Of a stretch of DNA of 64,000 nucleotides, positions 1 through 63,985 are shown piece after piece. Made by a program: the position numbers and the translations under genes. How positions within the stretch are numbered: position 1 is the first letter of the stretch; each line of letters starts with the position of its first letter. The notes under the pieces are model-generated. The model saw nothing but the letters and a program-made list of their open reading frames with translations. It did not search any database and had not been told where the DNA came from. The stretch lies in NCBI RefSeq assembly GCF_026571515.1, contig NW_026866638.1, positions 1 to 64,000 on the forward strand, given 5' to 3'. This DNA comes from Ruditapes philippinarum (lineage: Eukaryota).

Positions 1-395
1 AATTTTGGGAAAACGTTTTTCTTTTTTACGTACCAATACTTTAAAAGTGTTTTGGGGTTTAGGCCCCTTCAAACAAAAAATTGCCTTTTTTTTTTTCTAC
101 TGTTTTTTGTCGGATAAGCCCCAATAAAGGATTTTAATTGAAGTGTATCTGTAAATGAAAAAAAGACTTACTTTAAAGTTTAAATTTTCAGTAATAGCCT
201 TAAGTGTTTGGGGATGTAAAATACCCCACGTCCCATTGTTTAAAATTTTGGTCTCATTTAAATTTTTGTCGGGGGTAACATTGTTTTCAGCAACTTTTCG
301 TAAGGAAGAATTCCAGTCAAAGAAGTAGATGGTTTGCCTTTTAAAATTTGGGCAGTTTTTTGAAATTTTTATGAAATTTTTTATGCTTCTGGGAT

Positions 396-11660: not shown

Positions 11661-11998
11661 TTGTATAAAGAAAGAGTGACACAACAGCGTTCATTTTAAT
11701 AATCATAAGACGGTCAAGGCTTTCCATTATTCTCGGTGAACCTTTACTAATGAGGTTTGTCATGCCATAGATAAATCTGCATTTATTAAGTACACATTGT
11801 CTTCGATTGCTTATTAAGGGCAAATTCCACAATTGTTCTATTTGTAAATCAATGTTAGATGTTTATTAAACAACCATTAGTCAACAATACCCATGGGGAT
11901 TGAGTAAGAAATCGACCGTCTATATCGCATTCCTATTTGATTCGGTTGTGGCAGTAAATTGGGCATTATGTACAGGTGTATTGTTTCCTTGGACAGCA

Positions 11999-25863: not shown

Positions 25864-26192
25864 TTTGTTCCAAATACCGTTCTTCTACAATATATGGTTT
25901 AGCAACTGAAACAGGCAAATATATAATGTTTTGTCTTATTATGTTCATAGTTCACACTTAATTCCCCAAAGAATATAGCTTTATTATGACTATATTCTGT
26001 GACAGTTGCTCTTATGCATCATGAATGATAAGAGCATACATAATTCAAACGATTTCAATATTTATTTCTGCTGGGAAATACAACAGAAGTGATTCCAAGT
26101 AAAATATATTATTTATATAACTGTAAACAATTTCAGCCACCTCGACAGATAATCAATATCCGTCTGGTATTTTTTTAAATATTGTCATAAAA

Positions 26193-33546: not shown

Positions 33547-35392
33547 AAAGCCAAGTTTATTTCACAGTTATTAAAATTTTTTACGTATATTATAGAATTA
33601 TTAAAACTAAATCTCCCTTAAAGACATAGAGCTAAAAGCTCTCATTTACTTCATCAAAGTGTATATTTTTGTATAAGTGTTCATAATTGGTTTTAAGTTT
33701 AAGTGTACGAGTATATTTGAGTGTCATCATCCAATAGAATAAGCGTTATCTACTACACGTAGTAAACGTTTTCAATCATTTTTTCTTTACAATATTATGA
33801 TATCAAAAACATCGTAATGTTAAAAAAATATCAACAAAATTTCTTATGATTATTTGATAAGTTTCCTATGATATATTTGATAAGAGCGACAGTCCTATAT
33901 ACTTTATATAGAAGCAAATACGTAGATGCAAGCGGAGTAGAGTTTGTTCTGATCAGTATGAACGATTAAACTTTTGTTGGATGATTTTTATAATGATGAA
34001 AGTTCCTTAAAAATAACACTATAACTTTTAACTCAGTTCTTTTAATTCTATTATTATATAGACATTGTGTTGATGTATTAATGTATATTTGTAATAGAAA
34101 TAAAAAAAAGTGTTGATATAAAACATATTGTTCTTTTGTGATTATTTCTTTATCTTAGATGTTCAACTAAAGTGTGTGTTGACTTCTCTGTGTTATAAAT
34201 GGTCATTGCATGACTTTCAGGACAAAGATAAAAGTTATTCCCAGGTAATAATAAATTTATTCTTCCTTTCATTTATTTGTTGCTAAATCATTATCTGTTT
34301 TTCTCATCAAAAGAATGAGTCATATAAAAAAAAATACAAATACGCGACCTATTGGCTGTACTTTTGACTAAAACTACAGTACACAATATCCAGGCTAATA
34401 TTCAAAATCAATTGGAAATTGTTCTAAGTCATTGGATAATTAACTATTACGGCCAAATTTTCGATTCGTAATCATTTTCAACCACACTCTCGTCACTTTC
34501 GTCATTAATATAGGTTTAAAATTGATTCGTTTAGAGACTTGCAATAATTATGTTGAAACGTTTCAAAATGTTAAGATGATATTTCAGATTAAACTACACT
34601 TATTCACAAGTCATTCAAAATAATAAGTCGTATGAATTTGGACATAACTTTGAACGTGCTAAACAAACTGACCAACATTTAGATGTTTCAGATCATAGCA
34701 ATACTGATATACAATAAATAAAAGAATCGTATAGTCATACAAATCATTTTTTCAATCTGAAATTAGGTTTTACTTATTTTATATTATAAAATGTTGACAT
34801 TTTCGTCACATTATTAATACTCTCGATCAAACGCGTGTCTGAAGGAATATTTTTGCCAAGTTCATTTTTTCACTTTGTTTCCAGATTTTTATACTGCACA
34901 ACAGCAGGTGTCAAGTGCTGTGTGGCAGCTGTAAAAAGTTGCCCCATACTTCACTTCAGTGTTGTTATGTTTTTCTGGTCCTTCTGGATCATTGATGCCA
35001 GCACTATTAAGTGTTCGGAATTGAGTACCGCTTAAGCCGGTGCTAGGGGGCGTGAGGGATGTTGCACTTATTCATTATCCCTTATGTACAGACTCAATCA
35101 AACCGAGTCTGCAATTTTCATGTTATTTTGTTGTAAATAATGCTTTCGAGGGATCACTTTGTTTCCAGATTTTAAAAGATAATAGAAAATGATAGTCTAG
35201 GAAGGTTTGCAAAATTATTTGTCACATGTTCACATCCTTTCAAGAAGGAAAACCACTGCAATGAGTTTGTTGATTGTATTCGATCGTTCATCAGATAATT
35301 GTTATAGAACACTTGATTCAACGTCATTGAGAATTTTTCTTACCAGATATATTTAACTTTAAAGGTCAATTTTAGTAATTGTCAGTCTCAAT

Positions 35393-35478
35393 AAAAAATG
35401 TGCAGTCTGACCGGGACTCGAACCCGGGACACCCGGAATACCGTACCGCGGCTCTACCGACTGAGCTTTACGGCCGCT
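35393..35478 (-). pseudogene. tRNA-like sequence (tRNA pseudogene or tRNA-derived repeat head)
   Basis: The minus strand has D-arm GCTCAGTCGGTAGAGC, T-arm CCGGGTTCGAGTCCCGG and a following T-run, but the acceptor and anticodon stems pair poorly. Confidence 0.6.
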
Positions 35479-35950
35479 TAAACATATTCCCCCGTAAACA
35501 GTGAACAGTTTTCAAGAAAGATTTATTACTAGATCTATTATTATTATTATTATTATTATTACCATTCAAGTTTTGTAGTTTCTTCTGAGATGATTTGGAT
35601 AGTCCTGTACTTCTGGCTTCGAAAGCTTTAATGTTTTTGTATTCTTGATAATAAATAAATCATGTGCATTAATGGATAAAGACTATATTTCATTGATAGT
35701 TTGCCTACTTCTAGGCAATACAGCAGTAAACACTCTTTTCAACCCCAACAGTTAGAAACATCGCGATATCTCGCGAACCACAGATAAAATTAAACATGTA
35801 TACTTTTGGGTTAATTGAAAATAGAAATAAAACAAAATAAAGTAAATTTACTTTTTATAATATGTAAAGAAATAATTTATTTTTAGATAAATACTGGATA
35901 GAAATCACATAATTTATTTCTCATATGCCAATTAGTGTGCCAATTTACCA

Positions 35951-36473
35951 CATATTAAAGGTCATCTCGGGACTACGGTATTAACCATATTGTCAGGGTG
36001 GCGGCGGAGTGCTAAACTATCAGACATATTAGAGGTCATCTCGGGACTACGGTTTTAACCATATTGTCAGGATGGCGGCGGAGTGCTAAACTATCAGACA
36101 TGTTAGAGGTCATCTCGGGACTACGGTATTAACCATATTGTCAGGATGGCGGCGGAGTGCTAAACTATCAGACATGTTAAAGGTCATCTCGGGACCACGG
36201 TATTAACCATATTGTCAGGATGGCGGCGGAGTGCTAAACTATCAGACATGTTAGAGGTCATCTCGGGACTACGGTTTTAACCATATTGTCAGGATGGCGG
36301 CGGAGTGCTAAACTATCAGACATGTTAGAGGTCATCTCGGGACTACGGTATTAACCATATTGTCAGGATGGCGGCGGAGTGCTAAACTATCAGACATGTT
36401 AAAGGTCATCTCGGGACCACGGTATTAACCATATTGTCAGGATGGCGGCGGAGTGCTAAACTATCAGACATGT
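35951..36473. repeat. 74-bp tandem repeat, 7 copies
   Basis: ggtcatctcggga recurs at 35960, 36034, 36108, 36182, 36256, 36330 and 36404. Copies are nearly identical and have no spacers. Confidence 0.97.
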
Positions 36474-38295
36474 CTGTATGTTTATGCTCAAATTTAGGAT
36501 TTTATTGCTGCTGTTTTTTTTATTAAAGTAAAGTTTAAATATCGTGTTTAATATCGTATCAGATAGTAGCACTTTATTTATGCAAAATCCAATACGAGCG
36601 TGTCAGCACCGTTTTTATTATGTAAATAAGACTAATTGTGTTAGATTCCTAGCACAATTATTAGTTAGCTTTACCTATTCCATTGACGTAAGCGTATACG
36701 CCCTATCACAGTATAAAACGAGTACTGATATGGACGTCATGGGTGTTTTCCCCTTTATGTTTAATGCAAACATCTGCGCAGATCTACACAGTCATTCGTC
36801 AAAGTATTCCTTCATACGGCCCTTCTCAACGTATGTAGTGCACACCATTCTTTTGCAGTCATCTGTGCTTGTGTAAAACACCACTTGTTCATCTCAACTA
36901 CAGACATAAAGCCAGCTTATTATCAGAATGTATCTAAAAAATATATATCTGTCATATAATTCTCTTTGTGAATAATGTACTAACATTTTCCAAATTGAAG
37001 CCTACGTTGATCATATATGAAAGGATCGCGTTCCAGGTCATCTATTGTATTAAATATTATTCTCCCCTGACACAATTTGGAATGTTATTAACGTAAAGCA
37101 CTCATTGTTTCTCTTCTGTAAAGTTTAACAATTAAATCATATTGAAGAGAGCCCTTATCATAGCAAATTCCACATAATCAATTAAATCAATATTTGTTTA
37201 GGGAAACTACTGAATAACGGGATTCAATAATATCTAGTCATTACTTAGAATGACAATGAAATCAACCAGGAGAGATTTTTCAGCATTGTATTAAACAGAG
37301 ATACATATGATCTAGTTTCTCTTTGTACAAACATTATCAGATCAAATATGAAAATAACGTTGTTAATTGGTATGTCATTATTTTGTTGATGACAAAGCAG
37401 AAAAGACTTAAAGTTATGATAATAATCATTTTATTATGATGAGAGTGAAGCTGTAATAACAAATGGTTTAATCATATTCTATTTGTCATATACAAAAACA
37501 CATTTTATATGACATTTTCAATACAAAAATGGATTAGATTGGAAGCAACTAAATTCTTATTGAAGTCTTTTCCCGAAGTAAGTTATATTGTGTTATTGCA
37601 AGACGCCTTGGATAAGGCGATAGATTTTATCATTTGTTGACGAAGAAAGTCATCTTAGTAACTATTATTACCGGCAGTCTAATTAACTGAAGCACTTTCA
37701 CGGTTCTTTTGGTGTGTCTCTTATAAACTCGGTATTTTGAGGCGTAGTGTAGGTCCAGTTTTAATGACAATGGGAAAATACAATATTAAAGTGGCAATCT
37801 TTAATCAGAACAGTGAAAACAATACCACAAAGATAGTAAAAACGTTTATTATAAAAATGTGAAATATAAAAAGGCATAAACTATTCGCCTAATAAAAAGT
37901 ATCGAAGAAATTGTTGAATAAAAAAGAATGTAAAGAAAACAAATACATTGCACATTCAAAAGTCATTTCCATATCCCATTATTTTATTAATTTTCTTGAA
38001 ACAGTGTCGAACAGATATCATATTTCAAGAATGGCAGGTACTAAAGTTAATCAACTAAGTCAACTTTCTACTTTATTTTTGTTTTTCTTGAGGGCTGGAA
38101 AATGTTACGAAAAAGACATGTGTTACTGCGTCATGTATTTCAAGTGATTTCTCCCATAATTTTTTACTTAAGATAGCATAATACAACCGAAGTCACTGTC
38201 ATAAGCACTATACATATACGTTTTTTCAACAATCACAGAATAAATGTTATTAATAATAAACAGGTGCAAGGTAAACTTTAAAAAATTAATATGTA

Positions 38296-40054
38296 TTATA
38301 AATCATTTAATTCAAGAATGCTGTTTTCATCTAAACTTATCTTTGATGCTTGGTCCCCATTAACTGATTGCGGCATGTTAACCTCCGTAATAGAGTTTGT
38401 CTTGATGTATGAGCAATAGTTGTAATATTTGTAAAATTTCGATGCAATAATTCCGACAGGTAGAGCAATAACTATCACACCACATACTGCGCATGATCCA
38501 GCAATCACATGACCGACAGTGGTAACAGGCACATAATTACCATATCCAACAGTCGTTAGAGTTATTAACGCCCAATAGATTGCTTTAAAAATATTGTTTA
38601 TATTAGGATTGTGCAGGAATTCGGCAGCGAATAAGAAATATCCATAAACAAAAACACATATACTTAGCAAAAAAACTAATATTTTCATTTCTTGCTTACA
38701 TGATCGGAATGTTAGAGTAATAAGTCTAAATGCAGGGATACTTCTAGAAAGATAAAAAAGTCGAAAAAGCTTCAATATAGAGAGATAGCCAAATATAACT
38801 TGTATAGTTACAACATATATGGAAGTAACATATCGTAAATTTAAGTAGATGCAGCATGAAATCCAATAAGCTACATATCCAAAACAAGCAATAACTCGGG
38901 AAATGCATTTGAAATAACTGTTTTTATTCGGGCAGACGACAAATCCGATAACAAGCTCTAATGTTAGAATGGCATGTAACATTACACTGATAAACAACAG
39001 GTATGCGTTTGGTTTCATGGCCGAAATCTTTTCCATTGTTGCATTACTGAAATGAACGGAATCAGCAAATTTCGCAAACACCATCATATCCTCTTCAGTG
39101 TGGTTTTCTTGAAATATATCGATAGTGGATAGAGAATCAGCAAGCAAAGCAGCCAGAATAAGGAATGATATGAATAAGTTCCATACCTGAAAACAATGTA
39201 ATATGTATTAAATTCACCTATAAGCATAACAAGTTCATCAATTCACTTCTTTGATTAAAAAAGAAACAAGGCAGTCGGGGTTCTGCATGAATATGTTAAT
39301 ATTAATCCTATAACGAATCTTACAAATAACAAATATGAAAGAAATTTCATGTTGGAAAATAACATACATTCATATCGCCACTGACTTTATAATAATAATA
39401 ATAATCTAACATGTAAACAGTATACTAGCATGTTCTTATTTACATATGTATATTACAACACACCGAATTTACAAATTGTGACATCCGTAGATATATTATA
39501 TATATAATTAAGTTAAAGACAAAGTATACCATAAAAGGAAAACAATCAATGTTACAAAAATAATCAATAAATTTTATTCTTACAAAAGCTGATCTGGAAG
39601 ATTTCGGCTCATCCAGAAAAAGCCAAAGTCGTGTCCTAAGACCCGATTTTCGGTCGTGAATACGGCTCCAATTTTGACCTTGACGAAAATTTTCCAGCAG
39701 CAAGTGCACTATTTCTATATCACCTTCGCTACCATAAAGTGCCTCCCAGCAACACGGAGCAACATAGCGCGGAGGTATTTCCCAGAATTCTAACTCCTGT
39801 CTGAAAGTTGTTCCACATATATCCTTTGGCAAATGTATTGCTCCTTTTCGGAACGAATCCAGGATGTATGCAAACAGTATTGGATTTCTATCGAAAAAAT
39901 ATTCATTTTTTTCGTCGTCATATTCGTCGTTTTCTTTGTCTAAGTTAGCCAACTTCGAAGTAGAGAAAGCAGTAAGCGTTTTTGTATAGCACTTGTAAGT
40001 TGTTCCACCGATATTTATCAGAGTGAATTTGTTTTTAATTGTATGTTTATCCAT
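38296..40054 (-). CDS. Shaw/Kv3-like potassium channel, paralogue 5; complement(join(38296..39186,39584..40054)), 453 aa
   Basis: T1 with HLPKDIC-X20-CCW. Phase-0 intron (gctttt/gtaaga ... tttcag/gtatgg). Pore YWALITLTTVGYGN and S6 IALPVG. Confidence 0.93.
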
Positions 40055-40325
40055 AGAACTTTAGATTGTTTCACGATATGCAACAAAGAGATATGAATGT
40101 TCACTCTACAGAAACGATCTTATTTCATTAATCAATAACTGTCTGGGATATATACTACACATATACACACATTTCCTTTGTTTCCTTATGTTTATCCATA
40201 GAACTTTAGATTGTTTCACGATATGCAACAAAGAGATATGAATGTTCCCTCTACAGAAACGATCTTATTTCATTAATCAATAACTGTCTGGGATATATAC
40301 TACACATATACACACATTTCCTTTG
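40042..40325. repeat. 139-bp tandem duplication spanning the start codon of Kv paralogue 5
   Basis: 40042-40180 and 40187-40325 differ at one base and are separated by tttcct. Confidence 0.95.
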
Positions 40326-40490
40326 GGAAGATACGGCGTCAAAAACACAACATTCGCGCTGCTTATCCTCTGAATTATTTAGATAATTTTCTCCTGGCAT
40401 CCGATTAAAGGTACTTAACATTGCTATTTCTACATACATAAAATGGAGAAATGTAACATGGACGATACAACAGTTTCAAACTGATATTAA

Positions 40491-40865
40491 AGGCACACTT
40501 AGCCTATAAAATGTTGTTGTTTTTTTGTTGTGTTTTTCGTTTTCCAAAAATTTTAATGATTTGTGAATTGTAGCATTTCCAAAAAGAACCTCGTCGTCCT
40601 TATAGTTAAATTATTTTTGCTATTAGGTTTAGGCAATAAGCTACCAATGTACTAGTTTAGTATTTTGTATGAAAGTCAAAATACTACTCTGTTTATATTT
40701 ACGTTTTTTTCACAAATAACTACATATATACATTATATCAGTGCTATGTTCTTCAAGTGAATAGCATTTTACATATCCGGAATCCATTATTACAATATTG
40801 TAAACACACGTTTATCATTTCTTTAGAAAATAAAATAATATGTATTTCTGAGGCTTTATGTGCCT
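40491..40865. mobile_element. MITE flanked by TTAA (Kolobok-like termini)
   Basis: ttaa/aggcacacttagcct ... aggctttatgtgcct/ttaa: a 15-bp imperfect TIR with TTAA on both sides. Confidence 0.6.
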
Positions 40866-43619: not shown

Positions 43620-46600
43620 CTAGGTTTTAGAGCTCCTTGCCTTCACAAGTAAAAGTATGAAGGCTATTATTCTGTAAACAATCAGCATTGCTAGCAGCAG
43701 ACCGATATTAAACCACAGATTGTCCTGTAATCAAACAAAAAAAAGATATTTAGGAATCAATTTCGTTGCATATTGAAAATGCCAAATTATACATGTTGTA
43801 TAAGTGTTGATGCCCTCAATTACAATTTTTTCGGTTTGAAAGATTTTTGAAACTATTAATAACAATGGCAATATAATAATAAAAATTCTTTTACGTGCAT
43901 TCTATAAAAAGGATACAAATATGTTTGTCGTACCTTGCTGTAATTTAGATACAGTATAACTTGCTTTCCGTTGTGAAAATGACAGCTGTCAACAGGAGAT
44001 GTACTGTTACTATCACAAGCTACAAAACAATTCCATTTTTTTTTTGAAATATTATAGTTCTTTTTAACCACACTGTTTTCTTTTAAAAAATATAGAACAT
44101 ATTATCACTTATTTATTTCTTTGTGTTCTAGGGTTAAAAACTTGATCTAGGGATCAAAGATTTGGGAACGACCATATTGCCCCATCAAACCTGATAAGTT
44201 CAAGAAAGTGGACATGGAGGAATATCGCGTAATGTCTTATTTTAAATAAATGAATACATTAATTAGATCAGATATCTTCTTTTGTCATCTGTAAATGTTC
44301 ACGCGTGTATAGTACATTATTGGAATAATAGATCTATAATAAAGATATACCCACATAACATGTCAACATCATCCCACTGGTTTACCATAAGTAGCTCATT
44401 TGAATATTTGAACCATGATAAATATTCCAGCCAAATAAAATAAACTGGGACGGAACTGAAAACAAAGTTTTATATCTATTTTAAGGCAAAAGAAGCAATG
44501 AAGTCTCTCGTGTACAAAATATTTTTGTACATAGCTTTCTGAAATTATTTTAAACTAGCTACTTTAACAGTGGCAAAATGGGCAATGCTAAAGTTACATA
44601 TTATATAACCAATCTGCTTAAAATATCGACTTATTTTATACGTTAAATGTGCTTTTTTAATGTCGGACCATTTCATAACTTGTAAACCATATCATATAAT
44701 AATAAGCAAAAATCTAAAATCTGTTTAAAAGAATATTTAGGGAAAGGAAACATACTCTGAATTTAAGAAAAATCCACCAAACATTACTAGTGGAATAAGT
44801 GTTGGTGGAGCAATTGCCAATGCTGTGGTCACGGAGTTAGTACCCGCCGACACTATATAGCCTGAAACAATAAATAAATAATTCACATGAAAATGTTTTC
44901 ATGAATCGATTGATATACTAGAAACTTGTTTTAATGATCAAGGGATTTAATGCAAACACCGTTATAAAAAAGGATAAAATAGTGTACATGTAGATTGCTT
45001 TTGCTGAGTAATTGGTGTATACAATTCTGTCAGTTATTCAAGGAATTTTTATCAATATATGTAATGATGAAATCTAAGTTTCAGTAAACCGATGTTAAAT
45101 ACAAAACATGGATTTATAAAATGGCGAAAATGAAATGCTTACCAAATGAAACTGATATATTTGAAACAAGCACAATCACGGCAGTAAACACAAGAAATGC
45201 TTCCAGTGTATTGTATAACCCTGTATTTTACAATAAATGACATAAGCAAGTTTGTGCAATGTATATTGCTGCATGTTCTCATTGTATAACATGCTATGAG
45301 ACAGAGTCAAAATATCATTAATTCAAATATAACTAAACAATTTGGAAGAATGATTCAAATTTCAAATAGCTGTGAGAAATCTGCATCTTACCAAATGTTT
45401 AAAAGATGAATACTCAGTTTAAATGGTTGAAGGATACTTTTTAGACGGCAAAGTTATATAATGTCGTCGTGATAACAAGTAATAATTTCGCTGCTACAAT
45501 AATCTGTTATATAAAGTCTGTGAAATGATACTTTACCAATCATCCAGTATGCAATAGCTGAGAAGATAACTGGAATGATTAAGTATGAAGGCAGCTGTAA
45601 ATAAAAAAGGGAATTTTATTTCTTCAAAAGAATGTAATAATATCGTACAGAATGGGTATTGTAGACAAATATTTCTAGCACATCACACAGGATTATCTAC
45701 CGTTTACACCTGTGCTAGAAAAACCTGTCCTCGCGTGCTTAAAATGAAGTAATTTCCGCGTGCCTTTTATGAATGAATTGCGTTCTTAGGATGTCTTCAT
45801 TTTACCGTTATTAAGTCCATACGCTTCTATAAGAAAAAAGTGCATAATGAGAATCAGTTTTCGTAATTTCTGTTCTGAAAATAATTGATATCTAATATAC
45901 AAGAAAAAGAATCAAACACCGGCTGACGGTACAGACGGGAATATCTAGTTCTCGGGTAACTTAAGCGGAAACTCGACAGTGCCTCGTTACCACCGTAAAC
46001 AATTACTCTCGAGCTATATAATTCAGTCTCTACCGGCAGCCGGTGTAAGATTTTTATATGATTATTGAACACTTAAATGATTTGTATGGGTACGATATCT
46101 TTAATGACTTATATTAATCTAATCGTGTTAAAGGTTTGAACCTTGATCACATTTCAAACTCTTTACCTTATTCAAAGTGAGTATAATTTCTGGATATATT
46201 TGAATATCAAAAATGAAGATTTATTATACCTCTGCTAGAGTCTTGCTAATAAAGTAAATGTCCACCCTGTACAGCCCAATGCCGTACTCTCGTTTGAATA
46301 TTGGTGTCTCTAAAGGGAAAGACTGTAGGAAAAAAAAAACATTTCTTGTTATCTATCAAAAAAAAAAGTATTGGTTCAGCTACGTACCATTGCGTATTTT
46401 GGTTTCTTTGCATGCAAGTGGCAAGGGAATAGGAAGAACTTCAATCAAAAGTTAGCAACTAATTAAACGAGTAAGAATCATAAAAGATAGGAACGTGTAA
46501 CATTATACACAAATGCAGGACAACACGTCAATGCGGCGTTGGAGGACCACATAATCATGAAGTTAAACAAATGCAACAACTATCGGTTCTCCGACTAAAT

Positions 46601-49600
46601 TAACCGGGGTCATGTAAACAAATAATAATAGTATAGTTTTTTAGGTACTGCCAAAACTTTGAAATATCGAAACCGTTAAAACTTACATTTAGTACACCAA
46701 GCATATTTGTAACAGTCATATTTATAAGTATAAGAAATATGACCCCATTGATGTTCATAACACCTTCTTGGTCGTGGTTTAACTGGAGATAGATCAGCCC
46801 GAGAACTATGGATAATACCTGAAACCATCGTATTCATTTACAAAAGGATTTGATGGATCATTTTTAAACATCCAATGACACTGTGGCATATGCTTGCTAT
46901 TTAAATGATCTTAAAACAAGAAGATTTCATTTGTATTTAAAACTGAATAAAATGTGGAGATGCATGAAAAATGTTTAAGAAATTGAAACATATTGAATAT
47001 TTCTTATATGGAAGATGGTAAGTCAAATATCAACACGTATTGGGCTCGGGTGTTGATAGTAGCTTGCACAGTCCCTGCTGTCCATGAACAGACCAAACTC
47101 AAACCGAGCCTACGTTTTTTTTCAAATTGTCCACGTTATAAGACCTTAAATGCTGTACCTCATTTGACTGTCTAAAAAAGTGGAAGTATTTACTAAATAC
47201 ATCAATAAAATTGTTAAAAGTGAACATGCTATCTTTCCTTTATTTCATTTACATGTCAGATCAAAGACATGGGTAATAGTTAATGACACTAATGTTAACA
47301 AAATGTCATTAAAAAGTCATCAGTAAGTACTCACGATTGTCTGAACTAGTCTTACTCTCATAACCATAGGTTCTCTTAGAGTTGTCTTCCATGATCGTGT
47401 TAAAACTGCCGCAAATTGTTCATACCAAGGTGACCCATATCTGATATATATACAAATATAAAGATGACCCATATCTGATATACACAAATATAAAGATGAC
47501 CCATATCTGATATACACAAATATAAAGGTGACCCATATCTGATATACACAAATATAAAGGTGACCCATTCTGATATATACAAATATAAAGATGACCCATA
47601 TCTGATATATACAAATATAAAGATGACCCATATCTGATATATATACAAATATAAAGGTGACCCATATCTGATATATATACAAATATAAAGATGACCCATA
47701 TCTGATATACACAAATATAAAGGTGACCCATATCTGATATACACAAATATAAAGGTGACCCATTCTGATATATACAAATATAAAGATAACACATATCTGA
47801 TATACACAAATATAAAGGTGGCCCATATCTGATATACACAAATATAAAGGTGACCCATATCTGATATATACAAATATAAAGATGACCCATATCTGATATA
47901 TATACAAATATAAAGGTGACCCATATCTGATATATATACAAATATAAAGATGACACATATCTGATATACACAAATATAAAGGTGGCCCATATCTGATATA
48001 CACAAATATAAAAGTGACCCATATCTGATATATGCAAATATTCAAGTAAGCATTTACTGTTATTTTCTTAGCTTTTTAAACACAAACATACATGCATGAT
48101 TAATACTTATGACACTGTTGATTCTCTCCTCTGTAATGTTACATGACTTAATTATTGTATATTTGATTGTTTCTTATTATCATATTATAAATTATGTATT
48201 TGATTATTATTTTTTTATAAATTATGAATTAAGCAATAGATGATTGATATTTGACATATTCTGCAGAATTTCAAATGATATAAAATTTAATACCTATCCG
48301 AGCTTTCTGAGACGAGTAGCTGAAAAGATAAAACTAATTTTAAATTACTTTACACGACACTTCAACGGTGATAATTAACGATTCTGAACATGATTCTAAC
48401 TTTGATTGATTAAATGTTTTTCCGTACTAGAATATTTAAATTTTCTAAACTTGAATAACAATAAATAAGATAATCATATCCGAGTCCCATCACTATTGTA
48501 TTTATAAAAAACACATGTATATTTTGTTAATGCCGTTACAGTTGAATACAATGTCTTTTTGACGTGCATGTTTGAGTGGAGCTGTTTTGTTTATTTACTC
48601 ACTGAACTTCTGGAGGAACTGTTTATTTCCTTTGGATGATTTTCATTTTTCATTTCGATGGCATTTGTCGTCTTTTCAAATTCATCACATATTGTCTGCA
48701 AAAGATATATTTTTTTTTATAAATATCATGCCGAGTAAGAAACAGCAACACACTTACAAAATAGGTAAATCAATTCTTTCTAAGTTAAGACTAATTAATG
48801 TTAAATCATTAAGCTAAACAAACAGAGAAAAACTTAAATAATACAATTATACAAGATTGACGTAATTAACATTCAGGAATTTCAACTTGTGAGCAGATGT
48901 TTATACCTTTACATTGCTTCTGCATTCAGCTTCATTACCAGGTACCACAGCCATAGACGCTATAAAGAAATCACAAGGGTTGTAATTCTGTGGGCAGGGC
49001 TTACCGACACTGCAAATTAAAAAACAATAAAGCGTGTGTTATGATATGAAAGATTCGAGCTGATTGAAAGATAGAGAGATTAGAATGTTTTTCTTGGGCC
49101 ATTCTGTCCACACTTTGATATCTCGCGACTGTTACTACTCCTATTGTGTATGATTGATTTCCTCATACCTCTAAACTGTTTTGTACCTACATGCATGTTT
49201 GCGTGTAGACCTTTAACTTCCTTCCCTGCATATCTGCATTCCTTTTCTCACCCATTCAAAGAAAATTCCTTTAAATTTTATAAACTACTAAAACCCAAGG
49301 CGGTATTTACAAGCGACAGCCCAATTCAATAAATAATTTTATAACATAAAAAAGATGTTATTTGGGCAGAGCAAGCTGATTTCTTTTGTAACAGAAATTA
49401 CGATATGTAATTGAGTTATCAACTTAAAATATCAAAAATTTTCTTAAATAATCTCTCATACCATGGTTTTACCCAGATGAAAACATCAATAAACTTGAAT
49501 CTCCATTAATACTGTCATGTCCTCTCTAAAACAAAATTGGCCCTCTAATCATCTTGGCCCTTAACTTGACTCATAATTGTATTTCTGGCAACAATAAGAT

Positions 49601-52600
49601 GCATGATTTTTTTCTTCTATTTTCACCAAGTATTCACAAAATAATGCTCATTACACGTGTATAGAAAGAGAGATTTACAAGTTTTAATGAGAAAAAAATA
49701 TGTGCTGTATGCGTATATTTTAGGTACCAAAGTTGATTTATTTTATAATACTTCTTTGAGTGGCATTGTACGTTATTCAGAACAAATATTCATTCTCTTT
49801 ATAATTGCATTTTCAGTGTCACAATGTTACAAACAGATACCGACAAAAGTCAAAATTGGCCGAAGTTGGCCGAGTTGACTTGTAACTGGACAATATGTCG
49901 AGCGGGTGTAGTACAGTCGTACTTCTAGTTTTAAAAAGTAAAGTTGCTTACCTTGAGAAAAAGTTGAGGGCATCATTTATACCTCCGAGAAATGCGACTC
50001 TTCCTTCAGCCATTATAAGAATTCTTGATAAAAAAAACATGAACAATCTTTTAAGAAATTAAGTAAGGTATGATGAAAGGAAACCCAATAATCAGCGAAC
50101 GATTAGACGACGAGGATTAGAAGTACATTTACAGTACTGTAGGCAGTCAATATGTCCCTAAAATTTACATCACATGAAACCCGCCATATGTTTTTCCTGA
50201 TGGAAAAGTGCAACCGCATGCAAATGAAATTAATTTACATGTAACCATATCACTAAAAATACACGAATTAGGATTATATATATCCTACAACATCGAACAG
50301 AATTTCAATTTGCACTGAATGGAATTGCAAAGCTTTCAAAAGGGCAACATAGATAAAGATTAAAGAAAGATAAAAACATCTATAATGTAATAATTCAAAA
50401 TATTTCTACATCATATCTACAATTATACTTATTCATTTTCAACTGTGATGAGAGTTACCATCACTTTTACTAACTGTACATAGCTTGGTATTCACTTAAA
50501 TTTCTCTATTTACAAAATAATCAGTTTTTTAAATGTATTATTTTCCCTTACTGGTTGAATAAAAAGAAAACTTCCGAGGAAGGCTGGTGAATTGTACACA
50601 TAACCGTTTTTCCTTTGTTTGTCATAGATCTCAGATTTTGAACGATGCTTTCAGCCATGAATGAATCAAGTCCAGATGTTGGTTCATCACAAAATAATAG
50701 TGGTGGATCATTTAGTATCTAAAAATACAATATTTGTGGTAATCTTAACTACCCATTTAGCACAACAAGGCGTTTTGATGCATGCCAACTCGTTTTGTTG
50801 CCTTGTCACGAATTAAATGTATTTAATGTAAGCATAAAATGTTATTTGTTTTTTTACTCATTTGTAACAAGGTTTGTATTACAAATAAATATACTAAGTA
50901 TTTCCGTCAGTGTCCTTAACTTTTTGTTTTAGAAACAAACTACATGTATTATCAAAACATAAGGTTGAATTATTATAACAAACCTCTGAAGCAAAGGAGA
51001 GTCGCCTCATTTCTCCTCCAGATATCCCTTTTATTCGGCCAGGATCCCCAATCATGTTATTCATACATTTCTGCAGACCAAGTTCATGAATAACTTCTTG
51101 TACTCGAGCCAGCCTTTTATCCTTCGACAAAGTTCTATCCATCCTTAGTAAGGCCTATAAAACATTAGGTGACGAACTGCTTTTTGATTTAACAATTATA
51201 GAAAATGATTCATATATCTATCAGAAATAAACAAATTAAAAGGTGATATTGATAGATGGTGAAAACACAATACTAGTAAGTATAAAATTAAAAATATTTC
51301 AAAAAGAGAAATTGCTTTCATTTGTTTACTTTTATGTTGGCGATAAATAAAACAGGTTTGCAAAATGTTTGCTCTTCAGTAAAGGAACTGTATTATACAT
51401 TTCAACTATTTTGCAAATTGGTATTTTGATTGGAAATGGTGTGTTGTCTTACATTGTTATTTCAGGGAAGGGATAATTATCCAGTACATATGAACACCTG
51501 TTGCCGAACAAATATATATATATTCCTGCAATATCAAATTGTTTTATGGTTTTGAGACCCCTAGGGTATTGTTTATGTAATGATTTTATCTTACCCTAAA
51601 TGTGAGATGTTCCTTTACTGTCATTGTGGCAATAAACATGTCGTCCTGACGAACGTATGCAGAAATATCTCTTATATTTGTACCAGCAACTTTTCCATTG
51701 ACTCTGATATCACCTGTGATTGATAGAGAGTTTGTGTCCACCCTTGTTGTCAGGGTATTCAGCAAAGTTGTCTTTCCAGAACCACTAATAAATTAGTAAA
51801 TAAACTAAATGCTAAATAAAGGTTTTACGTTGTAATGTACTGTAAATTCAACCATCGTATTCTATTTAATCATTCTTTGTTGCAATAAACTAATGCATAT
51901 CATTTTGGTTTTTCTTTTTTTTCGATAATGTATTCATACACAACTTGAATAATAACAGTACAATACGGAAGTTTGAAAGTATAACAAATATTACCTCGCC
52001 CCAATGATAGCAAGTAGCGTTCCTGGCTTTATGCTTCCATAAACTGTAATAAGTAAGAAATGTGTATCTTTGAATCGAAATAAAATAAACGTTTTGCTTT
52101 AAATTATTATTAACACCGTGTATATCCAGTAACGCCGGAATGAGAAAATAACGCACGATTCGTTCAATAAGTAATGCAGAATTGTGCAATAAATGGCAGA
52201 TACCTGACAGGATTTGCGACGCGGTAAGTAAACTGGCCAATATATTTTTTATTTAATCGAACTTGAAAAAATGAATAGCCGTATAAGGCTGCGAAGACAT
52301 TACTCTTTATCCCTCATCAAGATTATTTCCACGAAATTGTTTACTTTTCAAGATCATTCGTGCAAATGATGGCATGACCACCGTTTTGAGCGTATTTTTG
52401 GCTTTTGTCGTCTCTTATAAGTACAACAATGCATATTATACCGTATACTTTCGATTTTCGGTAGGCCAGTGACATTAACTAAGCGACGGGTGATATAAAA
52501 AAATTAAAATAAGCTGATAAAATGTGATTCAAGCTGTTTTATGAGGTAACGTCGATGTACGTGAATTGTGCTTCGCGGTAACGCCGGAAAATGTGATTTT

Positions 52601-55194
52601 TTCATATATGTCACTGAACTGCTACACAGGTTGAACGCCTTTTATCGGCGAAAATAATAAAGTCATTTGTGACGTAGTCAATGTATTTTCTTCGTAACTT
52701 ATATAGAAATATATAATAATTAAATCTTGACAAACTTGACAATTGTTTCCTGAAATAAATTAATATTTGCAAACATGTTGCCCACGTCTAATCTTGTAAG
52801 AAAATAAGAACAATAAACTTCCATTGCAAATAAGTTGAATATAAAAATAATAAATAAATAAAGAGAAAACGTGTCTGTGTATTTTATGCCTGAAATAATG
52901 CACCTGTAAAGCTTAAAGTCTCCATATGTCCATGAATGTGTTGGCGTGATTTGAAACCCAACCAAAACAAATATATGGCTGTAGCACTTTGGCTGGTTTA
53001 CTTCTTTGAAAATGGATTATTTATCTAATATATTTTCTCTTATATAAGGAAGTGACTTGTATTCAAAATATATTTTACATAGAAACTATAATACCCAAAA
53101 CTTGTAAAAGCATAACCTTACTGTCCTCTGCTTAAGTCAAATCAATTATAACCCTTGAGGTAAAGATTAACCCTACTCTTGGGGTTTCTTATTATTTGTT
53201 AACTTGTATGGAAAAAACATATGAATCTGCCTCAGGAGCTTATGCTAGGCATTAATATAGACACGTTTACAAAACTAACAGGACTAATGACCCTTAAAGA
53301 GGCCACCAGTACAGGGCCAGGTAACATGCATACAGAGTGACCATTTGCTCACTCAGGTAACTCATTTGTACAAATACATTAAATATCTAATACCAATCTC
53401 TCAGACTTTGAATGAACTGTTCCAAATTCACAGCTGAGCAAAACCATTTCATAAATTCACCAGGTCAATTGTGACAAAGTTGAATATATTTTGGTCTCTT
53501 AACTCAATGTACATGTGTATTGAGAGCTACTAGAGATGTGTTTGGGGAATATTTTATCTATCCATGCCATGAAGGTCTAAATGTGGAATTCCCGGTGTTT
53601 ACTTCGTCAAATAATTAAAAATTAAAGAGTGAGAACAATGAAAAATTCCTCGTATTCACTTCAACAAAGATTAATTATATTACGAAGCTTATAGCTCTGT
53701 GGTTTTAGGGACGGATTCGAGACTGTGTCTTTATTTTCTACGCAATCAATCTAAATTAAATTCTGTATAAAATGAATTAAAGTTTCCGCATTAAATTATA
53801 TTTGAAAAGTAAAATATACTCGGTGATTAATGGCATTAAACCTGTGTAACAGTCAGTACAATATATGAAAAAAACACATTTTCCGGCGTTACCGTGAAGC
53901 ACTTTTCACTCACATCGGCAATACCTCATAAAACAGCTTGATTCACATTTTATCACCTTATTTAAATTTTCTTTATCACCAGAAATTTAGTTAATGTCGG
54001 CCTACCGAAAATAAAAATTATACGGTACAATATGCCTTTTTGTACTTGTAACAATCGACGAAAAGCCAAAACCTTGCTCAAAACGGTGGTCAAGCCATCA
54101 TTTCACGAATGATCTTGCAATATAAGCATTTTTTTCGGAAATACTCCTGATGAGGAATAAAGAGTATCGTCCTCGCAGCCGTATGCAGCTATTCCTGTTT
54201 TTACAGTTCGGTTAAGTAAAAAATATATTGGCCAGTTTACTTACCGCGTTGAAATTCCTGTCAGGTATCCGCCATTTATTGCACAATGCTGGGTTACTTA
54301 TTGCACGAATCGTGCGTTATTTCCACATTCCGGCGTTTCTGGATAAACACGGTGATTAAAATGAAATTAAAAAATAACTTAGTACAAATTAATCTCTGTG
54401 AAATCCAAATGACTGGGAAACACGGAGTTACATTTTGATAATACGAATTTGTGACATCGAATATACTCACCATTTTTCAGAATTTGGTTTGGAGGGTCTA
54501 TCGAGTCTTGTCGTCTGCAGCATATACGACGTTTTGGTTTAACATGAACATTAATATTATCCCATGATAACGTCACTCCATCTGCTTTTTCTTCCACGTT
54601 ACGCCTGTTTAAATCATATATATTTACAATTATAGGTTTCTTTGAATATTTTTTTAATTTGAAAAGATGCTTTATTATTTGCTTACTTTCAACGAGTCAA
54701 TTGAGATCATAACTTATTTTACTGTAAACGGAAATCGAGAACGTATCTGGATATAGAATAAGCCTACTTTTGTTGAACATAGTTTAAATCAATTGAAATA
54801 TGCAGTGACTGATGTACAAAGTTTTAAACTGTTTACTTTTATTTTGACACTTTGACTTTACTAACTTGGCATGTCATACACTTTCGTGTGATTTTTAAAG
54901 AAAATAATTCCTTTGTTTGATAGATAACCATTCAAATATGTTGAAAGGTCTTAAGTTAGTTTAAAGTATTTCTCGTCCAATTTAAACAGTATCTATTATA
55001 TAAAGGCAATAGCTTGCTTGTTAATATATATATATATATATATCACAACCACGTAAGGTTTCAAAATAAGATTATAATAAAAAGAACTAAGGATCACAAT
55101 AATATCAATAAAATGTAAGGCTTCAAATAATAAAAACTTACCGTGTCATACAGATAACACTATCCTGCCACTTTTTCATCATTGATTTTAGCAT
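43620..55194 (-). CDS. white: ABCG half-transporter, white-like, 19 exons: 55194(or 55149)-55142, 54604-54471, 52043-51995, 51784-51595, 51154-50984, 50718-50552, 50023-49952, 49009-48907, 48695-48603, 48319-48294, 47440-47335, 46818-46687, 46322-46230, 45594-45537, 45220-45143, 44861-44756, 44455-44355, 44019-43934, 43724-43620; about 625-640 aa
   Basis: All introns are GT-AG with matching phases. Walker A GASGSGKTT, Q-loop AYVRQDD, signature ISGGEMRR, Walker B/D-loop [13 protein letters not shown]-loop TIHQP, NYNPCDF, then the TM region with [23 protein letters not shown] and YLSWFKY. Exon 1, the start codon and the 26-nt exon are less certain. Confidence 0.9.
45905..46055 (-). mobile_element. 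Hairpin element of about 150 bp in a white intron
   Basis: acaccggctg.cggta.agac ... gtctctaccggcagccggtgt inverted arms with a central aactcg..cctcgtt. Confidence 0.6.
47428..48041. repeat. 31-34 bp minisatellite, 19 copies, built from the intron 10/exon 11 junction of white
   Basis: The unit on the minus strand is tttatatttgt(g/a)tatatcag/atatgggtca(c/t)c. The last copy runs directly into exon 11 ([10 protein letters not shown]). Confidence 0.95.
52114..54354. mobile_element. Long inverted repeat pair (arms of about 530 bp at 52114-52650 and 53820-54354) in white intron 2
   Basis: caccgtg..cgccggaatg..cgcggtaagtaaactggccaatatatttttt is mirrored by aaaaaatatattggccagtttacttaccgcg..cattccggcg..cacggtg. 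The arms are clearly diverged and the spacer of about 1.2 kb has no long ORF. Confidence 0.85.
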
Positions 55195-56890: not shown

Positions 56891-59152
56891 GTTTTGTGCC
56901 CCCACTTATAAGGGGGGGGGCATTTAGATTTACCCGTGTCCGTCCGTCCTTTCGTCCGTCCAAGCAGGGCTGTATGTGGACTTGTGGACTTGTTGATGTG
57001 TACTTGTGCACCTGGGTGTCTGCATGTGGATTTATTCGGTTTTTGTAGAGTTACTGGCTTCTGACTTAGTAAAATTTGCAATGTTGAACTTGTGTGTCAT
57101 GTAGCTCGAAATGTTTTTGACCTAGAGTCATGAATGTTAACAGGCATGTTGCTCAGCATGTGAAGTTGTACACCTGATCTTTTACTTATTGATTTATTCT
57201 GTTTCGTCAATGTTATGGCCCTTGACTTAGTAAAAATTTGCAATTTTCAATTTGTGTCCTGCGTGTCTCAAAAAGTGTCTGACTTAGAGTCATGAAGAGG
57301 AATGTTGATCAGCATGTGTAATTGTGCACCTGGTGTTTGTTTTTGAATTTATTAAGTAATTTTGTAGAGTAATTGTCCTTGACTAAATAAAAATTTACAA
57401 TTTTCACATTGTGTCGCGCGTAGCTCAAAAATGTTTCACTAAAGTCATGAAACTTCACAGGAATGTTAATCAGCATGTAACGTTGTGTACCTTGTGAATT
57501 TATTCTGCTTTGTCAGAGTTATTGCCCTTGACTTTGTTAAAAATAAAAAAAAATCTTTTTGTGCTGCACGTAGCTCAAAGAGTATTTGATCTAGAGTCAT
57601 GAAACTTAATAGAAATGCTGGTCAGCATGTGAAGTTGTGCACCAGGGGTTTCTGTTGTGGAATTATTAAGTATTTATAGAGATTTGCACTTAGATAAGTA
57701 AACCTTTGCAATTTTCAACTTGTGTTGCACTCAAGTAGTACCTAGGGTCATGAATCTTTTCAGGAATGTTCTTTAGCATGTGAAAATGTACACCTGATGT
57801 TTCGCTTGCAGATTTATTCTGTTGTATCAGAGTTATGGTCCTTCACTTAGTAAAATTTTCAATTTTCAATTTGTGTCTAGCGTAACCTAAAAAGTATTTG
57901 ACCTATAGTGATGAAACTTTACAGGAATGGTGATCAACATGTGTCGTTGTGCACGTGGGTGTTTTCGAGCGGATTTATTCAGTATCCGTAGAGTTATTTC
58001 ACTTGATTTAGTAAATTTTGCAATTTTCAACTTGTGTTGCACGTAGCTCAAGAAGTATTTGACCTAGGGTCATTCAATTGTTCAGAAATGTTGCTCAGGA
58101 TATATACACCCTATGTTTTGCTTGTAAATTTTTGTTTTGTCAGAGTTATGGCTCTTGAATTAGTAAAATTTGCAATTTTAAATTTGTGTCGTGCTTAGCT
58201 AAAAAGGTATTTGACTTTGGTCATGACACTTAAGAGGAATGTTGGTCAGCATGTAAACATAGAGAAAAACAGAGTCCCTAAACAAAGCCCAATACGACAA
58301 AAGTTGTGCGCCTTGTGATATGCTTGTAGATTTTTTCAGTATTTGTAGAATAATTACGCTTGACTTAGTAAAAATTTTCAATTTTCATCTCGTGTCATAG
58401 CTCAAAAATTGTATGACTTATTGTGATGATATTTTACAGGAATGTTGACAAGCATTTGATGTTGAGCACCTGTGTTTTAGTTGTGAATTAATTCTGCTTT
58501 GTCATTGACTAAGTACAAAATTTCAATTTTCAATATGTGTTGCATTTAGCCCAAAAAGTATTTGACCTTGAGTCAGGAAACTTTGGAGGTATGTTGGTCA
58601 GCATGTGTAGTTTTGTACCAGTGTTTACGGTTGTGGATTTAGTCAGTATTTATAGAGTTATTGCCCTTGAATTAGTAAACATTTGCAATTTTAAGTTGTG
58701 TCGTAAGATGTATTTGACTTACTACACTCGTGAAACTTGACTTCGCAAAATCCATTCCAGATGTTAAATGTACCTTAAATGCTTGAGTTAGAATCAACCG
58801 ATCATCAACAACACTGAGAAGCTGTGTACCTGGAGATTTGCATCCAGATATTTTTCAATTTAGTTAGAGTAACTGTATTTGATTAAGTATAAATTATAGA
58901 TTTCTCCATGCATATCTCATAAATTATTTGACCTGTAGTCGTGAAAGTATACAAGAATGTTTATCAGCATGTGTAGTTATGTACCTTTGAGTTTGCTTGT
59001 GGATTTTTTAGTAATTGTAGAATCTATGTCATTGACTAAGTAAAAGATTGTCGGTTTTCAACTTGTGTCACGTGCAGCCAAAACAAATTTGAGTTAGAGT
59101 TAGATGATTGACAAAACATTGGGGTGTGGACCTTTGGGCACATTTCTAGTTT
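56891..59152 (+). mobile_element. Helentron-associated non-autonomous element (HINE/DINE-1-like) carrying about 13 diverged repeats of about 160 bp
   Basis: 5' T-run, short hairpin gccccc..gggggc and a (gtcc)n microsatellite, then units containing gacttagtaaaa..gcaattttcaa..gtagctcaa..agagtcatgaa..cagcatgtg. Ends catttctagtt. Confidence 0.8.
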
Positions 59153-59998: not shown

Positions 59999-61692
59999 AT
60001 TAAACCTATGTGAAAATTAAAAAGAAATTCTACACTTATAATGCAGGTGTGATAAGTAATAACTTCTTTATACATGTACAGCGTCCTTCAATTTTAGCAA
60101 CGTAATCTTATTATTGTTTCATGACTTTAAAAGTGTCAATGTTTACTTTCTTTGAATTAAGATTTTTATATTTACTGATATTCTGTAATATTGATATTAT
60201 CCCTGCAATGAATACAGTTTTGAATAAGGCATGTTTTATAAGTTGATATAATAAAGGTTTTATTCACCATGTCTTCCGGGTGCCGTTGAATGTGGGGTTT
60301 TATACAGACCAAATACTTCTTTGTCAATAAACATGTTTACAAATCAACTGAATGCTTTTTAATAAACGCCTACGGTTAACATTGTCAAAGCGAATTTACA
60401 AATTTAATAAAAAAAAAAGCATTGCACTCAAAACTTCCTGATAACGAAATGGGTTCAAAAGATATGATATATTTAACTTCCCGTCCTTGGAACAAAATAT
60501 ATTGGACCGTAAAAACCTCAGTAGATGGTAGGATTTACAAATACAAAGTATATCACAAGCAAATCTTTTGTGTATATGCAACTATTTCTTGAGTTCGAAG
60601 CTGTATACTAGATTTACAAGAAAGGACATGTTTTTTTGTGTAATTCTTGTTGTACAGACCTTTTGTGATGAAAAGCGACAGATTTCCTAAAATTCACCTA
60701 ATACCAGTGTTATTTTAAGAAACATAATACACAAAATAGTTAAAAACTCTTTGGAGACCTGTTTTATTGCATGTGCAAATCCCATCCTTAACTACCAAAA
60801 TTATTTTCTATTATTCTATAAATATATATTATTAACTATAATGTTAAGATTCAAAAATAAAATTATATCTCTCAATATGTTTTGAAATCATCTCTTAATA
60901 AATAATATTATATTTTGTTATGTTTAACTACCTTTATTGATCATAATTTGCACGAAAATATATCATACATGTATTACTGAATAATAAATTTACTGGTGCA
61001 ACTCGACATTTTATATCAAAATCAAACGAATTTTTTATTGATTGTTAAAGTCACTAAAAAAATTTAATCTAATTTATGATACAATCATGATGTAACGCAA
61101 GGACATGCTTCGATAAATGAGACATTAAGTTCACTTAACTACACTGACAAATTTCTCTTCCTAGTTTTAAAGGACAAACGGAAACTCTTATCTGGAAAAT
61201 TGCACGTATGGTAAGTTATATTTTATAATGTTTGATGTCATATTAGTATTTACATAATTTCTGATCAGCAAAACAAAATATGTGTTTCAAAATATTTTTA
61301 TTATATATTTTAAATTTTCAAACGTAATGTCACTTTTCTGTGTTTTAAACTAATTTTTCTCAATTCGTTGCTGTTAACATTTCAGAGATAATCAAATATT
61401 AGAAATATGTTTTCATCTTTCATTTTGTTATCAATTTGATTTTACGGAAATAAAGCTGTTTTAGTTAGAATATATCAATATTTCAATTAATAATTATGAT
61501 ACTAAATTATTAGTTTTATTTTTATTGATGCATTTATTTACATATTTATTTTTTTGTGGAGTGTTTGCTTTTATACTGTTTGTTTGTTTACTTGATTCTT
61601 TTTGTTTGTTGACTGTTGTTCGGTTTTTTATTTCGCCATTCAGAACATTATTATACAATTTGTGTTTCAATATTTTCAATAATAAAGCTAAG

Positions 61693-61831
61693 ATGGATTA
61701 CAAGGAAATGTTAAGGGTTAAAACAACAGATAACGCACTTGTAGAACTAGCACGGGCCGAGGTAAATGAACACCCTGAAAGAAGACAACAAGACATACTT
61801 ACACTTAGAAACAGAATTCAGTTGCACCCAG
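61693..61831 (+). CDS. First coding exon of a probable CRAL-TRIO (alpha-tocopherol transfer/clavesin/RLBP1-like) gene; the rest was not found in the window
   Basis: MDYKEML...LVELARAEVNEHPERRQQDILTLRNRIQLHP matches the A..ELNE.P..R...I..LR..I..HP N-terminal pattern of this family and ends at cccag/gttggt. Confidence 0.7.
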
Positions 61832-62565
61832 GTTGGTTTATTTATTGATATCGTTTAACTTTTAAATGCCCTTGACTATATTATGTAAGACATTCAATAC
61901 ATTTAACGCATTATATAGTCCAAACAATTAGTAACTGTAGAGAACAAAGATATATAATATAATAAAATATATTGAGAGAAAAGTGTTTCTCCAGCTTTCC
62001 TCCTTTCAATTAAGAACAGGGCATTCGAATGTAAGGGAATAGATAATTTGGAAATCCAGACAGATTGTGCGGCTTAGCGGCATAAAAATAAATAGAAATG
62101 ACTCTTAATTGATATCTAAGTAATAGTTTTAGTATATGAAACGAGTTTGTTACGAGGATATAAAACTTGCTTAGGCGAATCGAAGGATGTTTCTGCAAAG
62201 ATTTTCTATTTGCAGAGACATAACGAGATGTCGCCAAGCCAGGGTAATACACCCGAGTTCATATTTTTGTTACATAAATAAAAGAAAAAATAATACGTTC
62301 ATTCCCTCTCTTTTGTTCTTTCCTTGTTGTATCAAATGTTAACCCTAGACAAAATTAAACTATGTCAGAGAATTCATCTATGTTGTTTTTGCTACTGGGA
62401 ATGTGTGATACCCTTTTTAATTTTACTGTCAAGAAATGTCATCGGCACTCCAATTATAAGCTTATTTATTCTCTTTATGAAGCAAAGGACTGCAAGCTCT
62501 GTGGTATTTTCTGATATTTGCAATCTTAATCGACTGTATATACGTATGTATTTTCCTGTATAAGT

Positions 62566-63985
62566 TTATTATCCCCCGCCGATTGAATCGGGAGGGGGAT
62601 ATTGTTTTGGAGTTGTCCGTCCGTCCATTCGTCCGTCCGAATTTCGTTTCGTTGCTAGTTCTCTGCAACTACTGGCTGGAATTCAATGAAACTTAATGGG
62701 AATCATCAATATCAAGAGGAGATGCGCATATCGTCGGCTTGTTTCAGTCAGATCTTTTAGTTATGGCCATTGATTAGTTATGCATTATGCATATAGAGGA
62801 AAAATCGTTTCCGCGCTACTTCTCTGCAACTTTTGTCTGGAATTCAACGAAACATTATGGGAACCCTCAATACCAAGAGGAGATGTGCATAACGTCGCCT
62901 TGTTCCGGTCAGAAACTTCAACTCAGAGTTATGACCCTTGATTAATTATGCAGTATGCATATAGAGCAATAATCGTTTCCGCGCTTCTTCTCTGCAACTT
63001 CTAGCCGGACTTTATGGGAATCATCAATATCAAAAGGAAATGCGCATATTGCCGGCTTGTTCTGGTAAGACCCTTGAACTCAGAGTAATGGCCTTTGATT
63101 AGTCATGCATTATGCATATAGAAGAAAAATCGTTTCCGCGCTACTTCTCTGCAACTTTTGTTTTGAATTCAATTCAACGAAACTTTATGGGAACCCTCAA
63201 TACCAAGAGGAGATGCGCATATCGTTGCCTTGTTCCGGTCAGACAGTATACCTTAGAGTTATGGCCCTTGGTTAGTTATGCAGTATGTATAAAGAGCAAT
63301 AATCGTTTCCGTGCTACTTCTCTGCAACTTCTGGCTGGAATTCAACGAAACTTTATAGGAACCCTCAACAGCGACAGGAGATGCGAATATCGTCAGCTTG
63401 TTCCGGTCAGACACTTAAACTCACAGTTATGGCCTTGATTAGTTATGCCGTATGCATATAAGCAATATTTGTTTCCGCACTACTTCTCTGCAGCTACTGG
63501 CAGGAATTCAACGAAACTTTATGGGAAACATTAATACCAAGAGGAGATGTCCAAGAGGAGAGGTGCATAACGTCGCCTTGTTCCGGTCAGACACTTCAAC
63601 GCAGAGTTATGACCCTTGATTAATTATGCAGTATGCATATAGAGCAATAATCGTTTCCGCGCTTCTTCTCTGCAACTTCTAGCCGGAATTCAACGAAACT
63701 GTATCGGAATCATCAATATCAAAAGGAAATGCGCATATCGTCGGCTTGTTCTGGTAAGACCCTTGAACTCAGAGTAATGGCCTTTGATTAGTTATGCAGT
63801 ATGCATATAGAGCAATAATCATTTCCGCGTTCTTCTCTGCAACTACTGGCTGGAATTAAACGAAACTTTATGGCAACCTTCAATACCAAGAGAAAATGCC
63901 CATAACAACGCCTTGTTTCGGTCAGACAGTTTAACTCAGAGTTATGGCCCTTGATTAGTTATGCAGTATGCATATAGGGCAAACT
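62566..63985 (+). mobile_element. Second Helentron-associated element with about 8 repeats of about 165 bp
   Basis: tttattatccccc..gggggata hairpin and (gtcc)n, then units with tctctgcaac(t/g) at about 62660, 62822, 62989, 63147, 63319, 63486, 63668 and 63835. Confidence 0.82.

Follow-up and report, generated by a model that had tools for sequence, protein, structure and literature searches.

The boundary between intron 10 and exon 11 of a white-like ABCG gene of the clam Ruditapes philippinarum has been reiterated into a minisatellite of 19 copies, a mirage, which is most likely a neutral by-product of repeat slippage in which the spliceosome uses the last copy only. Mirages are tandem duplications of an intron/exon boundary, described in amphioxus for Adh3 and the globins BflGb6 and BflGb9 (PMC3087553, in the part of the text available to us). 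The array lies within the 64,000 nucleotides of contig NW_026866638.1 that were analysed (positions 1 to 64,000 of the forward strand, hereafter the window), and coordinates given without a contig name refer to it. Four features of a mirage are found in the clam array: a tandem unit that spans the intron/exon boundary (some 18 nt from the intron and 14 nt from exon 11, in 19 copies), intronic copies with the authentic exon at one end (by the RefSeq gene model and the exon length of the paralogues), retained splice signals (CAG in 19/19 copies) and length instability with turnover of units (19 vs 26 acceptors in two genomic copies, which share a single unit type). The elements involved are the following.

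43620..55194, minus strand: white-like ABCG half-transporter gene, 19 coding exons, 640 aa (exact spliced alignment of RefSeq isoform X1, P0002; all introns GT-AG)
48294..48319, minus strand: exon 10, a 26-nt micro-exon of phase 2 whose donor faces the array (RefSeq model; spliced RNA joint 48319/48603; 29-nt counterparts in two paralogues)
47441..48293, minus strand: intron 10, 853 nt up to the last acceptor, the repeat making up its 3' 584 nt (RefSeq model and array coordinates)
47335..47440, minus strand: exon 11, 106 nt (RefSeq model; equal length in the paralogues on C6471 and C8099)
47427..48041, minus strand: mirage minisatellite, 19 copies of intron end and exon 11 start, 10 unit types of 31-34 nt
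48025..48027, minus strand: first CAG, adjoining unique intron, frameshifting, with the lowest score of the 19 (3.75)
47475..47509, minus strand: the two pseudo-acceptors closest to the last CAG on its upstream side; 47475 would shift the frame and lead to an early stop, 47507 would keep the frame and add 22 aa
47441..47443, minus strand: last CAG, the acceptor of the RefSeq model

A query with a single exon of the host gene retrieved the RefSeq 'protein white-like' isoforms X1 and X2 of R. philippinarum at 100%. The best NCBIfam match of P0002 is TIGR00955 (residues 36-638, E 1.3e-218), with a score below the family cut-off (727.6 vs 736.35 bits), and we have therefore filed the product as white-like only, a putative transporter; the paralogue P0025 passes the same cut-off at 745 bits. 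Isoform X2 (P0001) lacks exon 12 (46687-46818, minus strand), which encodes 44 hydrophobic aa that are likely membrane-spanning. The assembly contains five white-like loci, the host gene among them. In both paralogues with a complete exact model, those on C6471 and C8099, exon 10 measures 29 nt and exon 11 measures 106 nt, and TRF identified no array at their exon 11 acceptor. Since these paralogues share the intron position without the array, the position is old and the array a later addition. For a third paralogue, on C8925, tblastn coordinates were used.

TRF delimits the array at 47427-48041, with a period of 32, 19.0 copies and 92% matches, and the 19 CAG acceptors of the minus strand are separated by 18 units of 31-34 nt. 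The initial annotation, made from the letters alone, had described a 3' splice site of a white gene amplified into 19 tandem acceptors; all 19 of its minus-strand positions coincide with ours, and the unit does span the intron end and the exon start of a white-like gene. Its wording of the unit (tatatcag/atatgggtca) holds as regards the boundary and fails in the detail, with 6 of the 18 units beginning otherwise. Weak matches to the repeat (65-70% identity) were seen on six other contigs. The motif CTTG is present in the unique intron and again in exon 11; in the single-copy ancestor that we infer from the array ends, the two are 33 nt apart. One slippage between these two 4-nt direct repeats would have generated the unit, and after this first duplication the array would have expanded and turned over as any minisatellite. 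By its junction with unique intron, the first CAG (48025) presumably retains the ancestral acceptor context.

The strength of all copies was compared with a weight matrix derived from 47 acceptors in three white genes. By this measure the copies are comparable to real acceptors, as their earlier designation as tandem acceptors implied: their scores range from 3.75 to 7.36 (vs a median of 8.1 for true sites), between the 17th and the 49th percentile of the 47 genuine sites and in most cases beyond the 90th percentile of the 398 decoy AGs. The RefSeq acceptor (47441) scores 5.71, a value that 13 of the 18 upstream copies exceed, 4 match and 1 falls short of. With copies that are not weaker than the site in use, local sequence cannot make the choice and position would have to decide. 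The array thus provides a natural test of 3' splice-site choice, with 19 near-identical acceptors among which the used one is no stronger than the rest.

The last copy alone has the full exon body and a downstream donor at 106 nt, and would be picked by exon definition; exons starting at the upstream acceptors would be 140-690 nt long, against 106 nt from the last one. Seven of the upstream acceptors (47507, 47570, 47702, 47765, 47861, 47927 and 47993) lie at an offset from 47441 that is a multiple of 3 and would add from 22 to 184 aa, and the other 11, 48025 included, shift the frame and meet a stop within exon 11, at 68 or 88 nt from its 3' end. Both this frame arithmetic and the hydrophobic nature of the inserted residues (mean Kyte-Doolittle 1.17 over 183 aa in the longest insert) had been given correctly in the initial annotation. 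Mis-splicing to these 11 of the 18 upstream sites would create a premature stop, for which the 50-55-nt rule predicts nonsense-mediated decay. Splicing by intron definition could favour short introns, and we have counted against the use of the last copy that splicing to the first acceptor, at a distance of 269 nt from exon 10, would leave the intron short. The RefSeq model, itself a prediction, splices to the last acceptor and gives exon 11 its normal 106 nt.

The RNA comparison covered the stretch 47994-49050 (exons 8-10 and the first unit, exon 11 lying outside it) in four runs. Spliced joints of exons 8-9 were found in the X1 and X2 contigs at depths of 153 and 49, and the joint of exons 9-10 (48319/48603) in the same contigs at depths of 69.3 and 61.7, which confirms the micro-exon and the expression of the gene. 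Among the contigs and reads of the four runs, no splicing of exon 10 to the first unit was detected, within 47994-49050 only and with contigs that drop rare forms. The contigs of the array sum to depths of 33.3 and 20.3, about 2.5 times the single-copy intron (13.3 and 7.8), at a place where many units collapse. Raw run X21 contributed 14 reads, mostly unspliced and partly resembling the second genomic copy described below, and raw run X23 contributed 0. At the protein level, no insert was present at the exon 10/11 position in any of 16 aligned white-like proteins (0/16), and two queries made of the translated array and exon 11, which are weak searches, gave no insert-bearing protein: 2 of 178 and 1 of 459 candidates came back, each with a query cover of 16%, the length of the exon 11 part.

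A diverged copy of the gene is found on contig C15246, with 84% identity over 44913-48041. It is located at about 30800-40600 (loci L011 and L012), inside a rearranged duplicate of C15125:55.8-77.4 kb. As assembled the copy is broken, with the equivalents of exons 8 and 11 interrupted by stops, with the micro-exon and part of exon 6 missing and with exons 16 and 17 not found; assembly errors may explain part of this damage. C15246 may represent either a paralogue or a divergent haplotype of the white-like gene. Its array has 26 acceptors, as against 19 in the window, and contains 4 TAA and 2 TAG. The window has 10 unit types and C15246 has 7, with 1 common to both; the divergence of units is 0.087 between the arrays and 0.083 and 0.080 within them, and the flanks differ by about 15% or more. 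These differences in copy number and unit types indicate turnover of the kind seen in minisatellites. Other clams add to this picture. Tandem units of the array are carried by three other runs, as contigs or reads, and one X1 contig is identical to the window over 47994-48068, where C15246 differs, and then continues into a unit bearing a TAA; further unit types appear in runs X2 and X21.

The initial annotation had drawn from the array the possibility that repeat number tunes or abolishes a functional transporter. In its general form this would be a length-dependent splicing rheostat, in which longer alleles divert transcripts to upstream acceptors, mostly into decay, so that less transporter and perhaps less pigment is made. 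We consider it improbable. It can draw on copies that score like true acceptors, on a copy number that differs between genomic copies and unit types that differ between clams, and on the human genes 6-16 and CBS, in which nearby pseudo-donors are used (PMC1557585, in the text available). By analogy with these two genes, 47475 and 47507 would be the likeliest sites of leakage. Against it, though weakly, neither a joint from exon 10 to the unit nor a clear excess of array depth was seen in the RNA of 47994-49050, and in the amphioxus mirages and the human F7, lamin B2 and PDGF arrays the authentic site alone is used, according to the accessible portions of PMC3087553, PMC3902484 and PMC1557585. 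Arrays of this type are also commonplace, as one paralogue has three of them. With a normal-length linker in the RefSeq model and in the 15 other aligned proteins, no insert protein and a repeat type that recurs in the genome, the proposed tuning of the transporter finds no backing here. The role in colour, put forward as speculation, fared no better, as a literature search on the clam, shell colour and ABC/white genes gave no study of the host gene; for the Pacific oyster, an involvement of ABC proteins in shell colour is only hypothesised (PMC4691203, as far as its available text goes). The more specific version, in which a polymorphic acceptor mirage acts in the wild, colour-polymorphic clam and longer arrays leak to 47475 (decay) and 47507 (+22 aa) and thereby set the dose of transporter, is less probable still, and no report of a rheostat effect of an acceptor array on splicing was found in the literature examined. 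If leakage did scale with array length, the common intronic repeats of bivalves would become candidate splicing QTLs.

Much less credible is a coding device, in which the array would stay free of stops to let in-frame acceptors insert 22-184 hydrophobic residues before the first membrane helix. The sense strand of the array has indeed 0 TAA, TAG or TGA in 615 nt and 10 unit types, so that the earlier observation of an array without stop codons in any sense frame is confirmed by the count; seven sites are in frame, and among the 12 mirages examined the host array is the only one free of stops (0/11 for the others). The stop-free state is nevertheless not clearly beyond chance. Shuffled units lack stops in 18% of dinucleotide and 2.8% of mononucleotide shuffles, and 2 of 15 real acceptor-spanning 32-mers of the host gene lack them too, one being the array's own site. 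Only 3 of 32 transitions in the unit make a stop, vs 23 of 96 of all substitutions (24%), and most of the changes between units, five, are transitions. Units of 31, 32 and 34 nt scramble the frames along the array. The openness is a property of the allele in the window, given the TAA-bearing unit in the X1 contig and the other unit types in X2 and X21. Of what would mark a coding VNTR, that is, a repeat kept in transcripts or proteins and conserved in its openness, we found neither: no insert-bearing protein turned up, and stops interrupt both the sister copy on C15246 and the allele of another clam; the importance that had been implied for the open frames is not supported.

An assembly artefact is the least likely reading, in spite of a homopolymer-rich first 8 kb of the window that looks error-prone by eye and of the many breaks in the C15246 copy, since a second, independently assembled and divergent copy carries the array, the two contigs share just 1 of their 10 and 7 unit types, tandem units appear in three other runs and the units are 92% alike and not identical. 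The exact copy number could be off. We thus return to a mirage shaped by repeat slippage as the preferred explanation, and as it stands the array is one more mirage in this genome and matters little.

Eleven further mirages were found in the genome, three in one white paralogue and eight among 49 arrays in about 411 kb of myosin and ABC genes. These last loci were picked by family search and not by their repeats. In the myosin genes (213 kb) 4 of 21 arrays span a splice site, and in the ABC genes (197 kb) 4 of 28. Seven of the eight adjoin an exon with a Pfam hit and one was judged by eye; six are at acceptors and two at donors.

C9722:47002-47396
C14505:133533-134009
C15363:45006-45130
C9155:157097-157733
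C8285:87996-88115
C1237:117037-117470
C1237:117856-118158
C5820:9621-10029

The Pfam check covered all but 3 of 43 frames, these being of low complexity, and the flank check covered the myosin-locus arrays other than three with a period >120. The array L092 was rejected because it ends about 90 nt short of the acceptor despite its Pfam hit. With 8 mirages in 411 kb, the DNA of conserved multi-exon genes has a density of about one in 50 kb. An enrichment at splice sites is not established: the three white paralogues gave 3 mirages vs 0.44 expected (Poisson P 0.010), all three in one gene, and the myosin exon ends detected by tblastn gave 2 vs 1.0-1.6 expected (P 0.27-0.46), by a method that overlooked 2 of the 4 myosin mirages and picked up one array (L087) that we have rejected as a mirage. 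Neither is the bias toward acceptors significant (7/11, P 0.55).

The three mirages of the paralogue on C6471 comprise one at an acceptor and two at donors. At the exon 12 donor of the gene of P0025 there is a donor mirage of 55 bp x 16 (L025, about 136375-137246). The RefSeq model has GC as its donor, and GT is present in about seven of the copies downstream (a count by eye); should the GC site indeed be the one in use, this would be a sharp test of position over strength. At the exon 6 acceptor, L024 (about 131866-132340, 81% matches) is an older, decaying acceptor mirage, with AG lost from the nearest units and absent from the 125 nt that precede the true acceptor.

Other parts of the window have their own repeats and genes. 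Five tandem two-exon genes (11870-13758, plus strand; 19167-21202, minus; 23739-25884, minus; 32030-33546, plus; 38296-40060, minus) are presumably voltage-gated potassium channels, a label that we base on motifs. Positions 35950-36473 hold a young minisatellite of 74 bp x 7.1 (97% matches), with a G+C content above that of its surroundings, and 57062-58254 and 62654-63982 hold satellites of 161-168 bp, with arrays of similar period in many other loci examined. In 1-8000, the abundance of Phe and Lys in the frames and the numerous homopolymer runs suggest by eye an error-prone assembly. A gene starts at 61465-61848 (plus strand), which we take to resemble CRAL-TRIO lipid-binding proteins.

Duplicated splice sites have reportedly been the subject of work by Reed and Maniatis in 1986. 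Internal tandem repeats that alter gene structure are known from human segmental duplications (PMC2812944, in its accessible text), and there, as in the clam, a minisatellite that sits at an exon-intron boundary differs from one copy of a duplicated gene to another; the human repeats often give rise to introns or persist in alternative transcripts, and neither was seen in the clam. Closer are the human boundary-spanning donor arrays of F7 IVS7, the interferon-inducible 6-16, CBS IVS13, lamin B2 and PDGF. In the sections of PMC1557585 available to us, F7, lamin B2 and PDGF use the authentic site only, and 6-16 and CBS use the two nearest copies as well. A splice site is reiterated within an intron in these arrays and in the clam, and the site adjacent to the exon is mainly or solely the one used. 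The human arrays are made of donors and that of the clam of acceptors, so that the 5'-to-3' scanning model of PMC1557585, in the form available, cannot apply to the clam as it stands.

The closest counterparts are the amphioxus mirages, which, in the available text of PMC3902484, also include troponin C and PGBD5. Splicing is reported there as unaffected (PMC3087553 and PMC3902484, same limits), and for the Adh3 mirage somatic instability is reported (PMC3087553). A mirage in a mollusc was not reported in the literature that we searched, a search that most subscription journals fell outside. The clam array differs from those described for amphioxus, as far as the accessible text goes, in its mollusc host, in its 19-26 copies vs 3-6 in BflGb6, in keeping AG in all copies, in the stop-free allele and in a splice site that is known from a gene model. 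It resembles them in the tandem repetition of intron end and exon start, in the splice signals that are kept, in the normal protein that is predicted, in a copy number that differs between genomic copies and in a unit that falls within the 10-72 bp range given for Adh3.
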